DNA from: Pseudomonadota bacterium
GTDB lineage: Bacteria > Pseudomonadota > Gammaproteobacteria > DASZBR01
DNA: 64,000 nt
Direction: 5' to 3'
Assembly (NCBI GenBank): GCA_021777765.1
Contig: JAJYDF010000001.1
Location: forward strand, 13,151-77,150
Below are positions 12,001 through 18,000 of this stretch, piece after piece. Position 1 is the first letter of the stretch. Every line of letters begins with the position of its first letter. The position numbers are program-made.

Positions 12001-15000
12001 ATGGAGAAAAAATAATTATAAATTTTCTCTGGGATTAAATTTAAACGTTTCTGACATCCGTTGATAAAATTCTTTCGCTGATGGGGTATCTGCTGGAGGA
12101 GTATAAATTTGCAATGTAACATATTGGTTGCCAATTGCTTTTGATGGCAAACCTCGACCTTTTAAGCGTAATTTTTGACCTGAATGCGATCCTGCCGGAA
12201 TTTTTAATTCAACTTTTCCGCCCAGAGTAGGCACAGCAATGGTTGTACCCAATGCTGCCTCCCAAGGTGTAATAGGTAAATTTAAATAAACATCGGATCC
12301 TTCTACACGGAAATGGGGATGTTCTGCTAATTCCACATCTAAAATCAGATCTCCTGCTGGCCCACCACTCATTCCCGGCGCGCCCTGACCGCTAAGACGA
12401 ATTTGTTGCCCATGGGTGACGCCTGTCGGTAATTTCACTTTCAAATTTTTTGTTTGAGTATTTCTGCGACCGTATTCATCTGCAGTAGTTATTGGAACTG
12501 TAAGATTTATTGTTGCTCCTTGGTAAGCATCAATTAAGGGAACTGTTATTTTACTGTGTAAATCTTCCCCTTTTTGTGGAGCTGCACGACGTGATTGAAA
12601 AGGAGATCGTTGTTGTTGTCTCCCTGCTCCTGCAAAACCACCACCAAATAATGATTCAAAAAAATCACTGAATTGACCACCACCGAGATCACCAAAATCA
12701 CTGGAATAATAAACATGTTCACCTGGGCCACCAGCACCCCAACCAGGCGGTGGTGTAAATTGTTCACCCGCGCGCCAATTTGCGCCCAGCTGATCAAATC
12801 TTTTGCGTTTTTCAGGATCGCCTAATACTTCATAGGCTTCATTTAATTCTTTCGTTTTTTCTTCAGCGTTTTTTTCTTTGCTGACATCAGGATGATATTT
12901 TCTCACCAATTTACGATAGGCTTTTTTGATTTCATCGGTGCTCGCATCGCGTTTAACGCCTAATACGTCATAATAATTTTTATATTCCATAACATTTACC
13001 CGTTAAAAGAAGTGGGGAAGTAAATGATCAAATAAAAACCCAGCATTTGCAATGACAAATGCTGGGTTATTTTTGCGTGAGAAATGTTTATTCTTGAACT
13101 TTAATATCAATTTTACGGGGTTGGCTTTTTTGCACTTTAGGAATAATAATTTCTAATACACCGTGTTTTCCTTTAGCAGTAATGCCTTCTGAATCAGCGG
13201 AATCAGGTAAGCTAAAGCGACGATAAAAAACACCTTCTTCACGTTCGCGTCTGTAAAAATCGACACCTTTTTCCTCTTTTTCGGAATGTTTTTCACCTTT
13301 GATAGTGAGTACACCTTTTTCCATGGTGACTTCAATTTTTGAGGGATCAACACCTGGCACATCTGCCAAAATGACGAAGCGAGTGGGTTCTTCTTTGATG
13401 TCAACATTCGGCAGCCATTGACTGGTTGCAACTTTTGTTGAATCTGTGTCTGTAGTGCGCAGATTTTGTTCAAATATTTTATTCACTTCATCTTGTAATT
13501 GATTAAGTACTGACCAAGGTTGATAACGTATAATTGCCATAATAACCTCCAATAGGAAATAAAATTAAAAAGTTGATTTTAAATATAGAGGCTATTTTTT
13601 GGATTTCAAGTTGGTTAATTAATAAATTTTAATAAATAGATAAACCCAGAAGAGACAAAGAAAGATGATAATATCAAAACAAATAGTTATTCAATTCACC
13701 ATTTGATTTATATCTGGTATTAAATCTGATTTTTCTACGTAATGACTATTTGACTATCTCATCTTTTTCATACAATCTCCGCAGGAAATTGTAATTTTTT
13801 AAATAACATACTTACGATATAATCGTATAACTATGCTAATTTGATGAGGCCATACTATGCAACGTATTATTGCAGGAGCTACAGGATTAATTGGAAGTGA
13901 ATTAGTGAAATATTGGTTAAATAAAAATTATCAAATTACTGTTATTGGTCGCAGTAAACAAAAAATAATTAATCAGTTTGGTGCTAGTGTTATAGCTTGT
14001 GAATGGCAAGAATTATCTACAGAAACGATTAAAAATGCAGAATTAATAGTCAATCTCGCTGGCGCAAATATTGGTGATAAATTATGGTCAGCTCAACGTA
14101 AAAGTGAAATTATTTCGAGTAGAGTAGAAGCAACCAAAACGATCGCAAATCTTTGTGCTCACTTAGGTCAACAATCTCCTGTATTATTTAATGCCAGTGC
14201 AGTGGGGATTTATCCATTTGGTGAAGAAACATATACAGAAGATGCAACATTAACAACACCTAGCAGTTTTCTAAGTGATATAGCCCAGCAATGGGAACAA
14301 GCAACACTTAATGCAAAGAATAATAATGTGCGCGTTATTAATATGCGTTTCGGCGTTGTGTTAGCAAAACAAGGTGGAGCATTACCAAAAATGGCATTGC
14401 CATTTTATTTTTTCGTGGGTGGAAGAATTGGTAATGGCCAGCAATGGCTATCATGGGTTACTCTTCCAGATATTTGTCATGCTATTGATTTTATTTTTCA
14501 AAATGCTTCATTAAATGGGCCAATTAATTTCGTTGCGCCTCAAACAGTTCGTCAAAATGAATTTGCAGAAATATTAGGAAAAACATTGCATCGACCGAGC
14601 AAATTTCCACTGCCTGAAAAAGTAGTGAATTTAATATTTGGTCAAATGGGCAAAGAGTTATTATTGTCAGGCCAACGAGTGGAGCCTAAAAAATTAATTG
14701 ATCAAGGCTACACATTTTTATATCCCACATTGACGGAAGCGTTGCAAATGATTTATGGGAAGAAATAATCTAACTATCCAATGCGGTCATGTTCGTACGA
14801 GATCGATTTGTTAAAAATATTATTAATTTATAAGGATCTAAAAATATGTATTTTTTTCACCAAGTTTTTGAGACAATTTTTGAGAAAAAACATACTCTAT
14901 GATTCAATCATGATGGCTAATAATTTAGATGTAAATCAATAGGGATGGTTAATAAATGCCAATAAAGACAGTAGGTCAGATTTTAGAAATGATTAAACCG

Positions 15001-18000
15001 TATATGGGCGGTGGAAAGTATTGTAAATCAAGATATTCTAATTATGCTCGTCTTGTTATTGAGGATAAAATCGATGAGTCTAATGTAAAGCAATTAGGCG
15101 AGGCGTTAGAACAGAATACAAAAAAAATCGATTTAATTTTAGGGGGCGGACACTTCAACATAAAAAATTTAGATAAAAAATTCACTACGGAAGAATTGAA
15201 AGCAATCAAAGAATTAAGTCGGATAATCAAGACAAATCCAAAAATACGATCATTTACTATGGACAAATATTTTTTTGGTGATTTAGGCGCGCAATATTTA
15301 AGTGAGGTTTTAGATAATCCTCAGCTGGTTTCTTTGGGATTTTATTGCTGTGCTATCGGTGACATGGGGGTTCAGGCTATATGCAAAAAATTAAAAAATA
15401 ATAACACTTTAAGACATCTCAATCTTTCAGCTAACCTGATAGGAAATGAAGGAGTAAAAAATTTACTTGAGATGCTAGAAACAAATAGAAGCATCATGTC
15501 ACTTGGTTTAACTTATGCAAAGATATCCAAAGAAAATGTAGCTTATTTAATAGAGGTGCTGGTAAAAAATAAAACACTATTGGCAATTAATTATGATTTT
15601 GCATCTGAGAACATGAGTATTGAACAAGAGCAACGAATTAATGATTTAATTGCGAAAAACTGTAAATTAAGAAATGATTTTATCATGGCAGCAGCTAACA
15701 GTGATACAAAAACAATTGAATTATTATTCCAGCATGGTGTTTCAATTAATTGTGTTGATGTTCAAAGTAAAGTTGGATGGACTGCATTACATTATGCCTC
15801 ATTTAATGGTGATATCAATCTTGTCAAATTTTTAGTAGAAAATGGCGCAGATATTAATTGCCTTACTGACGAATATAATACAGCTTGTGAATTGGCGGAA
15901 GCAAATAAACATTATGACATATCAAACTATCTGGCATTACAAAGTATCAAATTGACGAGTGCTAATTATAATGCTGCTGAAGAATGGTCTCAGTTGGGAG
16001 ACAATTATTTTTTAGGTAATATTTTAATTAAAGATAATATCATAGCGCGAGCATGTTATTTACAAGCGCTTAAAATAGATGAAAATCATGAGCATGCATT
16101 TGCTATCCTGGGATATCTTTATTTAATTCAAAAGAAACTGCTCTTTGATAATACTCGTAAGAATGTGGTAAGCACTTCAATGATTCCTTCAATTTTTACA
16201 GCGAACCAATGGTTTGAGTATGGAAAATTTTGGTATTTGCAGCGCAATTATAAATATGTCAATGCATGCTATATTAATTATTTGTTATTGAAAGAAGAGC
16301 ATCCAAGTCCGCTATTTGATATCGCAAGACATTTGAGTGAAAAAACTATTCAAGCCCAAGAATGCACTGAATATTTTGCGCGAGTTGTCTACGAAAATCA
16401 TTTCGAATCAATAAAGCCCCTCTTGCATAATTGTTATTCAAATATGAGTTTGGCTAATGATTGGTTATGTTTAGCGAGAAGCTTTTTTCTCGAAGGTATA
16501 AAAAATCCATTAAATTATAATTTTGCTCTTGCTTGTTTTGAAATAGCCACTCAAATTGATCCTTGCAATATTGAAGCACTTAATCAGCTGGGCGATATGT
16601 ATGTCAAAAGCGAGGGCATGTGGAAAAATAGAAAAACTGCTAGAGAATATTATGAAAAAGCAGTAAATCTGGGCGATTTAAGCGCATTGGCAAAAATTGT
16701 AAAAATGGATTATGCAATGATTACTACAGCTGAAGAGTGGATAAACATGGGTGATAAATTCCATGATGATATCAATGACAAATTAAATAATGAGAGAGCA
16801 CGTATTTGTTATGAGGAAGCATTAAAACTAGATCCAAATAATTATAAAACTTTAATTAAATTAGGTTTATTGTGTGAAATGAGATTGAATCAAGTATGTG
16901 AAGCTGTTAAATATTACGAGTTAGCAATTAACCATGCTGCTGAAAGCTGGTTTTATCTACTAGACAAATTAATATCTATAGATCCTGTAAAATTATTAGA
17001 AAATTTATCTAATAGATCGAATTTTAGCGCTGACGATTTATTAAAAATTGGTAATTTTTATTACAATTCTTCTAATAAAATAACTCAAAAATATAGTAAA
17101 GCGGCTAAGTGGTTTGAAAAAGCAAGAGAGAAAGGAAGTGCAGAGGCATATAGAATGATTGGAGTGATGAGTGAAAAGGGGCTCAATGATTCTATCAATT
17201 TTGTTGAGGTAGCGAGATTATATCAACAAGCTTTAGAGAAAGGCTGTACAGAGGCGCGGAGTAATTTAGAAAAATTATTTAATAAAGAAGATATTCGATG
17301 TGTTGACGCTCAGGAAATTAGTAAGATGTATCGTGATGGCATAGGTGTTAAATCTGATGTGCAACAAGCTGATAAATGGTATCGGCTGTCTATGCGAAGA
17401 TCTGCTATTTCACATCCTTTAACGATGTTTTTTCATACCACATCTTCTTCAGGAAGTCGATTAGAGAGCGAGCAAGATCCAGCAAGTCTCAATAGTTATA
17501 ATTCTGACCGCAACTGCACACTATTAGATAAGCAAAATCCATAGAAGCTTCTCCCGTAAAGAAAGCACGCAGTATGAAATTAGTGCGCAAGCTAAGTAAA
17601 CATATAAAATATGAAATTAACACTTATACAAGAATATCAATTTTTTAGGGAGATGTTATATGCTCAACTATAAAGAAGCGCTCGCAAAATTAAAAGCAGA
17701 TCTAGCGGGTGGTGATGAATCTAAAGTAAAAGAATTTATCTGTGGTTTAACTAGTAACAATCATCTAAGTGTTACAGAAAAAATACGTCTACTGTCTGTT
17801 ACTATAAATAACAGTGATAATAATTCAAAAACAATATTAGATATGTTTCCCGCAGTGCGTGAAGATATTGCCTTATTTGCCTATAAGCTAGGTCAAAAAC
17901 TCGAATTAGAAAAAGAAATTCGAAAAGCTAAAAAATTATATTTAGTAGCTGTCATTTTAGGTAATAATTCTGCTCAAGAACAATTTAGCCAAGCTGATTT

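Follow-up and report, generated by a model that had tools for sequence, protein, structure and literature searches.

A protein of three consecutive repeat solenoids encoded by a gammaproteobacterium is a candidate host-directed scaffold

Introduction

Eukaryote-type proteins made only of repeats are a hallmark of bacteria living inside protists and animals, and thousands of such effector candidates have already been predicted. What, then, is a protein of this kind doing among the heat-shock genes of a gammaproteobacterial chromosome segment? The question is raised by a 64,000-nucleotide stretch of contig JAJYDF010000001.1 (assembly GCA_021777765.1, positions 13,151 to 77,150), referred to here as the window, which encodes an 862-aa protein in which a preliminary description of the sequence had recognized leucine-rich repeats (LRR), ankyrin repeats and at least four Sel1 repeats, an architecture that it considered typical of host-targeting effectors. 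The analysis presented here establishes that this LRR-ANK-Sel1 protein is a soluble protein composed of three consecutive solenoid binding modules and a polar tail modeled at low confidence. It is lineage-specific and compositionally native, and its gene occupies a variable locus with other eukaryote-type proteins nearby. With modest confidence, we favor its interpretation as a non-enzymatic scaffold that is translocated and binds proteins of the host.

Results

Three solenoid modules make up the protein

The LRR-ANK-Sel1 gene reads from an ATG through 862 codons to a stop (Table 1), and the three repeat classes attributed to its product proved to be real, as judged by Pfam profiles, phmmer searches of PDB sequences, a hidden Markov model (HMM) and AlphaFold2 (AF2) modeling. 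The N-terminal module is an LRR domain of the ribonuclease inhibitor (RI) type. Residues 68-214 match RI chains in the PDB (1dfj_I, E = 3.5e-17; also 3tsr, 1a4y and 1z7x) as well as LRRC34 (E = 3.5e-16), the Pfam LRR_6 profile is marginal (23.1 bits for a cutoff of 23.4), and the precomputed Pfam record of the protein lists PF27087 (LRR_TMOD-LMOD). When the sequence is printed in rows of 28, the RI-type register is apparent from residue 97 to residue 236; two further units, starting at about residue 29 and lying within residues 29-96, were read by eye only. The 28-residue register and the similarity to RI together identify an RNI-like LRR, a class defined by 28-29-residue units with the LxxLxLxxNxLgdxGaxxLaxaL pattern.

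The ankyrin module that follows is recognized by Ank_4 (50 bits), Ank_2 (46 bits), Ank (43 bits) and Ank_3, all above their cutoffs over residues 243-331, and by ankyrin and DARPin chains in the PDB (phmmer, E ~ 1e-36). Its 33-residue register is visible, with three repeats in tandem. The LRR and ankyrin assignments rest on sequence evidence, the informative AF2 model covering the Sel1 half only; a single-sequence AF2 run on the whole protein yielded a mean predicted local distance difference test score (pLDDT) of 37.5.

The C-terminal half exceeds the Pfam Sel1 cutoff (51.2 bits against 30.7), with two stretches passing individually, and TPR_17 scores 35 bits, above its cutoff, over residues 618-642. 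An HMM built from the very regular 92-aa unit of a relative, P0128, produced six matches (residues 340-390, 415-490, which is weak, 500-585, 590-660, 691-776 and 786-815). A hand alignment, in which the units begin at residues 339, 414, 497, 589, 690 and 780, agrees with these six matches, and the C-terminal half therefore comprises 5.5 super-repeats. As read from the unit alignment, each super-repeat would consist of two hairpins of the Sel1/tetratricopeptide repeat (TPR) type and a linker helix. With about 11 helical hairpins in the array, the initial count of at least four Sel1 repeats was right but an underestimate. BLAST of the protein against itself found no internal repeats, the units having diverged too far.

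Similarity searches and modeling converge on the same assignment. Essentially all of residues 331-861 aligns to Sel1 arrays in BLASTP at about 25% identity, an exhaustive HMMER search with residues 331-862 returned 23,512 matches, all of them Sel1 arrays, and the best PDB sequence match of this part is 4bwr (phmmer, E = 5e-12). The AF2 model of residues 331-862, made from a 50-row alignment, has a pLDDT of 78 and contains 26 helices and no strands; residues 336-400, 470-665 and 685-825 are confident, and residues 404-461 are of low confidence. The top Foldseek matches to this model are crystal structures of Sel1-like repeat (SLR) proteins, at a probability of 1.00: Oxalobacter 6ok3, E. coli c5321, Legionella LceB and LpnE, SEL1L and HcpC. 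A profile score above the curated cutoff and tandem alpha/alpha hairpins in the model thus characterize the array as SLR (PF08238), and for all three modules the matches, taken as sequence matches, are far beyond chance.

Given that the Sel1 part resembles LpnE (Lpg2222, 6deh) and LceB (8sxq) in sequence and fold, both being alpha/alpha solenoids of the Sel1-like type and among the best matches to residues 331-862, one might take the protein for a periplasmic or surface protein of the EnhC/LpnE type, acting on the envelope or on host entry. The similarity, however, is at the generic level of the repeat (14-18% identity, TM-scores of 0.19-0.30) and does not extend to orthology: the array spans about 480 aa in super-repeats of about 90 aa and is preceded by LRR and ankyrin modules that fill the first 335 residues, whereas LpnE and LceB, which we take to be Sel1-only, measure about 330-380 aa. 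Neither a signal peptide nor a transmembrane segment is present (maximum 19-residue Kyte-Doolittle hydropathy, 1.47), and the N-terminus has no hydrophobic segment or lipobox (over 10 residues, hydropathy reaches at most 0.88 in the first 45). With no such signals and no orthologues, the protein falls outside the conserved periplasmic Sel1 proteins of this kind, membership of which the preliminary description had named as contrary to its proposal, and an EnhC/LpnE-type role is highly improbable.

Beyond the array, the last 35 residues contain eight serines, four asparagines, three threonines and three aspartates, and from about residue 826 the tail is modeled without secondary structure at a pLDDT of 36-51. 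It does not end in a CaaX motif, the only approach to one being a CTLL at positions -9 to -6, which is not terminal. Searches with Pfam, NCBIfam and PADLOC detected no catalytic domain in the protein.

The sole PADLOC match is to the candidate PDC-M72A (E = 1.4e-10). Bacterial STAND/NLR-like defense proteins use TPR, LRR or ankyrin arrays as sensors, and, together with a CRISPR-Cas locus 13 kb away, this match could suggest that the protein supplies the sensor of a defense system, anti-phage or NLR-like, its repeat arrays serving to detect ligands. Yet the match is confined to ankyrin residues 240-327, and no NTPase or effector domain is found in the protein or is recognizable in the adjacent orf533 (Table 1), which makes a role in defense very unlikely.

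Table 1. Coordinates of the LRR-ANK-Sel1 gene, of its modules and of neighboring features in the window
Feature	Position	Strand	Basis
LRR-ANK-Sel1 all-repeat protein, complete ORF of 862 aa plus stop	14956..17544	+	ORF list; identical public gene call
187-nt intergenic region 5' of the gene; Shine-Dalgarno-like GGGA ~10 nt 5' of the ATG	14769..14955	+	Sequence
Ribonuclease-inhibitor-type LRR, residues ~29-236, about 7 units of ~28 aa, last unit a cap	15040..15663	+	PDB phmmer, register, Pfam
Three ankyrin repeats, residues 237-335	15664..15960	+	Pfam above cutoff, PDB phmmer
Sel1/TPR-like alpha-solenoid, residues 336-817, 5.5 super-repeats of ~75-100 aa	15961..17406	+	Pfam, HMM, AF2, Foldseek
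C-terminal tail, residues 818-862 (~45), polar, Ser/Asn/Thr-rich; candidate secretion signal	17407..17541	+	Composition, AF2
Adjacent orphan open reading frame (ORF), 533 aa (orf533), 115 nt downstream of the LRR-ANK-Sel1 gene	17660..19261	+	ORF list
903-aa protein with N-terminal U-box, residues 23-90	4757..7468	-	Pfam U-box, 38.8 bits against a cutoff of 21.4
Orphan ORF, 625 aa from TTG; 621 aa in the public call	7598..9475	+	ORF list, public gene call

The gene is resident and its relatives are found at the repeat level

An identical 862-aa product (P0001) is present among public gene calls on 12 contigs of ENA, NCBI metagenome-assembled genome (MAG) and Logan assemblies, including the NCBI MAGs GCA_027437375.1 and GCA_027437415.1, and its gene context is constant across the contigs that carry it. 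Because the same gene and context recur on all 12 contigs, the gene is not an assembly accident. Its GC content is 0.323 and its GC at third codon positions (GC3) is 0.250, within the 0.20-0.29 of core genes, and the agreement holds in every module; the equal GC3 identifies it as a resident gene, neither contamination nor a recent import. Among named organisms, the closest relatives of the LRR and ankyrin parts come from eukaryotes (for instance, Owenia and Daphnia), as would be the case if the gene were an artefact of eukaryotic contamination, of chimeric assembly or of a recent, unexpressed transfer from eukaryote to bacterium. The bacterial context in independent assemblies, the composition shared with neighboring core genes in GC as well as GC3, and an intact ORF equipped with a Shine-Dalgarno-like motif all speak against this explanation, whose probability we consider nearly negligible.

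A word-index search of 5.8 billion proteins turned up no full-length relative, the protein being a singleton accompanied only by its identical copy, and neither did a full-length homologue scan of genome contigs. The best non-self matches cover the ankyrin part only (at most 24% of the query), the LRR part used alone as a query returned three weak metagenomic matches, and the exhaustive HMMER search recovered relatives at the repeat level only. The Sel1 array finds matches in arrays of metagenomic and MAG origin, and tblastn against plasmids yielded only generic Sel1 matches at about 25% identity. The combination of RI-type LRR, ankyrin and Sel1 modules thus appears, as far as sequence searches reach, to have no detectable relative elsewhere and to be absent from the L. 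pneumophila repertoire.

At the level of the Sel1 array, five proteins (P0126, P0128, P0129, P0130 and P0131) share with the LRR-ANK-Sel1 protein two repeat flavors, AEEWxxLGxxY...ARxCYEQAL and KAxxWYEKAxxKGsAxAyrnLG. Array-to-array identity is 22-29% in long alignments and at most 42% over matched repeat stretches, which does not represent co-linear orthology. P0130 combines five Sel1 repeats with a C-terminal OTU domain (Pfam, 32 bits against a cutoff of 23.3). In P0126, P0128 and P0129 the Sel1 array is succeeded by one ankyrin-like repeat and then by an HExxH-containing region, their C-terminal ~340 aa sharing the sequence HELTHF. This region has no Pfam match above cutoff and no PDB sequence match, and could be a metallopeptidase-like effector domain that has yet to be described. 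Apart from one ankyrin repeat, nothing in the C-terminal regions of P0131 and P0126 is matched by a PDB sequence; the labels "Ulp1-like" and "metalloprotease" considered for them are motif-level guesses and were not used as evidence.

P0126 is encoded in IMG 3300020737, a genome whose ClpB shares 80% identity with that of the window, and therefore comes from a relative of the organism studied here, whereas the neighbors of P0128 include NACHT-HEAT-lipase, TPR and ankyrin giants. Sel1, ankyrin or TPR arrays bearing a terminal OTU domain have been described in intracellular bacteria and proposed to be deployed inside the host cell (Zhang et al. 2012; PMC3482391). P0130, P0126, P0128 and P0129 share exactly that build. 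The LRR-ANK-Sel1 protein differs in lacking a catalytic "warhead", in having its Sel1 array at the C-terminus instead of the N-terminus, and in that its added modules are binding repeats.

The gene lies in a variable locus beside orphan and eukaryote-type genes

The window is a segment of a low-GC (34%) gammaproteobacterial chromosome and carries ordinary genes such as rmlD, pncA/pncB, cbpA, hsp20, clpB, recN, nadK, hrcA-grpE-dnaK-dnaJ, greA, ftsH and glmM. Within it, the LRR-ANK-Sel1 gene has on one side an epimerase gene that adjoins hsp20 and on the other orf533, which adjoins clpB. This position between hsp20/cbpA (12016-13552) and clpB (19397-21979), and the existence of eukaryotic TPR/Sel1 chaperone adaptors, one of which, SEL1L, is a fold match of the protein, could point to a proteostasis adaptor, that is, a TPR/Sel1 co-chaperone-like scaffold working with hsp20, cbpA and clpB. 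The gene is, however, on the strand opposite to all three heat-shock genes and is not conserved: it has no orthologue, and a different gene stands beside clpB in the relative whose ClpB is 93% identical. No sigma-32-like box was found at the gene by a relaxed pattern, in contrast to dnaK, although this is a weak control, since the upstream regions of hsp20 and clpB are not matched by the pattern either. Taken together, these observations render the adaptor explanation decidedly unlikely.

The sigma-32-like promoter 5' of dnaK (41346-41370) has the form TTGAAA-N14-CCCAT and reads TTGAAAAAATCTGGCTAGTCCCCAT; it is the only match to the relaxed pattern among the four upstream regions, and the exact sigma-32 consensus has zero occurrences in the window. 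A general promoter scan was uninformative (22 sites, against a mean of 29 in shuffled sequence).

The variability of the interval was observed at its clpB end. The contig binned in GCA_027437415.1 and designated L092 encodes a second ClpB, 93% identical to that of the window, and beside it (L092, 5707-6558, minus strand) is an unrelated gene with what we read as an HKD-like motif; both orf533 and the LRR-ANK-Sel1 gene are absent there. The interval is therefore variable, at least at this end, as expected for accessory genes, and the presence of the second ClpB in the bin implies that GCA_027437415.1 mixes two related strains or species.

Two domainless ORFs had been described as flanking the gene and as looking like further effectors. 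Both are indeed domainless, but only orf533 is adjacent, the 7598-9475 ORF being separated from the LRR-ANK-Sel1 gene by five housekeeping genes. Each lacks a match in Pfam, NCBIfam, PADLOC and the PDB, and calling either an effector would be a guess. orf533 forms a singleton cluster and is possibly co-transcribed with the LRR-ANK-Sel1 gene; no terminator-like site was detected in the 115-nt gap between them, in a promoter/terminator scan that is itself uninformative. The 903-aa U-box protein, also a singleton cluster, has no family match over its remaining ~800 residues and, taken singly, hints in our view more strongly at eukaryote targeting than does the LRR-ANK-Sel1 protein itself. Just upstream of the window, and preceding lipopolysaccharide/rhamnose genes, are a 914-aa orphan and a 383-aa ankyrin-repeat protein (contig L090, 214-4189), so that eukaryote-type and orphan genes extend beyond the window. 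Near the LRR-ANK-Sel1 gene, at least six large ORFs lack any family match; five of these also lack export signals, and the large orphans are not paralogous to one another.

Several other features of the window were recorded. Two tandem paralogous genes for AAA_14 + DUF4143 ATPases (378 and 400 aa) occupy 2253-4724 on the minus strand, with rmlD and the U-box gene on either side. Also on the minus strand, at 30396-39283, is a complete type I-C CRISPR-Cas locus (cas3, cas5d, cas8c/csd1, cas7, cas4, cas1 and cas2), whose array (30396-31447) consists of 15 identical 37-nt repeats (GTTTCAATCCTCACTCATTAATTAAAATGAGTGCAAC) and 14 spacers. The 52075-58351 block, with a GC content of 28%, encodes an ATP-grasp protein, an EamA transporter, orphans of 374 and 494 aa, of which the longer has a hydrophobic N-terminus, a PTPS protein and a short-chain dehydrogenase, and may be a small accessory biosynthetic cluster. 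Genes for a small Sel1 protein (48 bits), a 212-aa LexA-like repressor with helix-turn-helix (HTH) and peptidase S24 domains, an alpha/beta hydrolase and a 395-aa orphan are found at 59225-62630. In the related genome (contig L086), a similar HTH-S24 gene is located directly upstream of P0126 and is itself preceded by HisKA, response-regulator and CsrA genes. The window contains no Rfam match and no tRNAs.

The organism and the case against translocation

Searches with ClpB returned 90-93% identity only on short contigs, with the next tier at or below 81%, and neither Legionella nor Coxiella is among the best 120 matches. On this marker, the organism falls outside the named Legionella and Coxiella lineages, its placement in the Legionellales is not supported, and it represents an uncultured gammaproteobacterial lineage for which MAGs are the only record.

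The proposal that the LRR-ANK-Sel1 protein is translocated draws support from its repeat-only build, from the absence of a catalytic domain, signal peptide or transmembrane segment, from the polar tail, from the OTU- and HExxH-bearing relatives of its array and from the eukaryote-type neighborhood. A number of observations weigh against it. The best named ClpB matches (78-79%) belong to assorted free-living Gammaproteobacteria, and the organism is not demonstrably host-associated; its complete type I-C CRISPR-Cas system and ordinary biosynthetic genes, moreover, argue against its being an obligate symbiont. No secretion-system gene was seen in the ~105 kb of contig read, and no Dot/Icm gene in the window or 20 kb of its flanks. 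By inspection, the tail has no clear E-block at positions -10 to -17, glutamate being present only at -24 and -26, and neither position -3 nor position -4 is hydrophobic. The comparison with known effector repertoires suggested by the preliminary description came out negative, the protein belonging to no curated Legionella Dot/Icm effector family: in NCBIfam, AnkY (33 bits) and AnkH (25 bits) fall short of their cutoffs of 600, and both matches are confined to the ankyrin repeats. Finally, cytoplasmic proteins made entirely of repeats can also be immunity proteins (PMC3482391).

The last point leads to a further explanation, under which the protein would be a cytoplasmic "polyimmunity" or decoy protein whose modules neutralize incoming toxins, the RI-like LRR, for instance, blocking an RNase toxin. 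LRR, ankyrin and HEAT repeats are listed among immunity domains, and fused polyimmunity proteins are encoded without adjacent toxins (PMC3482391); the LRR-ANK-Sel1 protein, for its part, has binding modules only and no export signal. Repeat classes alone are nevertheless not diagnostic. No toxin, RHS or CdiA protein and no SUKH, SuFu or Imm-n family is found in the protein or nearby, the neighboring orphans giving no Pfam match; the only PADLOC match falls on the ankyrin part; and the Sel1 arrays of relatives carry offensive-looking domains, OTU in one and the HExxH region in three. In addition, 862 aa is far above the typical size of an immunity protein. We therefore regard immunity as unlikely, and retain translocation as the preferred, if modestly favored, reading.

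Discussion

How does the LRR-ANK-Sel1 protein compare with known host-directed proteins? With L. pneumophila LegL, AnkY/LegA9 and AnkH/LegA3 it shares eukaryote-type LRR or ankyrin binding modules, but its scores place it in neither the AnkY nor the AnkH family. All nine LRR effectors of L. pneumophila are devoid of any other domain (9/9; PMC11696984), whereas here an LRR of the 28-residue RI type is fused to two further repeat classes. The effector interpretation of the preliminary description is supported in part, by the eukaryote-type and orphan neighborhood and by the OTU-fused relative of the array, but "typical" overstates the architecture, the L. pneumophila LRR effectors being single-domain proteins and the triple combination having no detectable relative. 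The 28-residue unit and the PF27087 match are shared with the LRR of RI, LRRC34 and the tropomodulin-leiomodin proteins; in contrast to RI, whose chains are all-LRR and about 460 residues long, the module described here has only about seven units, is encoded on a bacterial chromosome and is fused to ankyrin and Sel1 arrays, and nothing indicates that it binds RNase or actin. In overall build, the protein resembles the repeat-only or repeat-rich effector candidates of Legionella, Berkiella, Amoebophilus and the chlamydiae, while falling in no named effector family.

If the protein is a translocated scaffold, its mode of action might be envisaged as follows. The bacterium would be associated with a eukaryotic host, probably a protist, and would export the protein into it through a contact-dependent system that reads the C-terminal tail and that, by analogy, could be of the type IVB kind. 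Once inside the host, each solenoid may bind a different partner, so that the protein would tether, bridge or sequester host proteins stoichiometrically, without modifying them. The Sel1 array could then act as a targeting module shared with the catalytic relatives, with the LRR and ankyrin modules presumably occupying the place that catalytic "warheads" hold in those proteins.

A broader and more speculative proposal, which we judge to be on balance rather improbable, is that the LRR-ANK-Sel1 protein and its U-box, ankyrin and orphan neighbors constitute an independently evolved eukaryote-targeting arsenal of a family-level gammaproteobacterial clade, known from MAGs only and outside Legionella and Coxiella. 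The Sel1 super-repeat array would in that case be a lineage-wide delivery or targeting chassis bearing swapped heads (OTU, HExxH or LRR + ankyrin), and the protein described here would be a "sequestering" effector that works by stoichiometry alone.

On its own, the finding alters no current view and would not surprise a specialist. It extends the catalogue of repeat-only proteins to a gammaproteobacterial lineage represented by MAGs alone. Should the LRR-ANK-Sel1 protein prove to be translocated, it would provide a three-handed bait for finding host targets, and the Sel1 super-repeat that it shares with its relatives could reveal how an effector family aims at one host structure.

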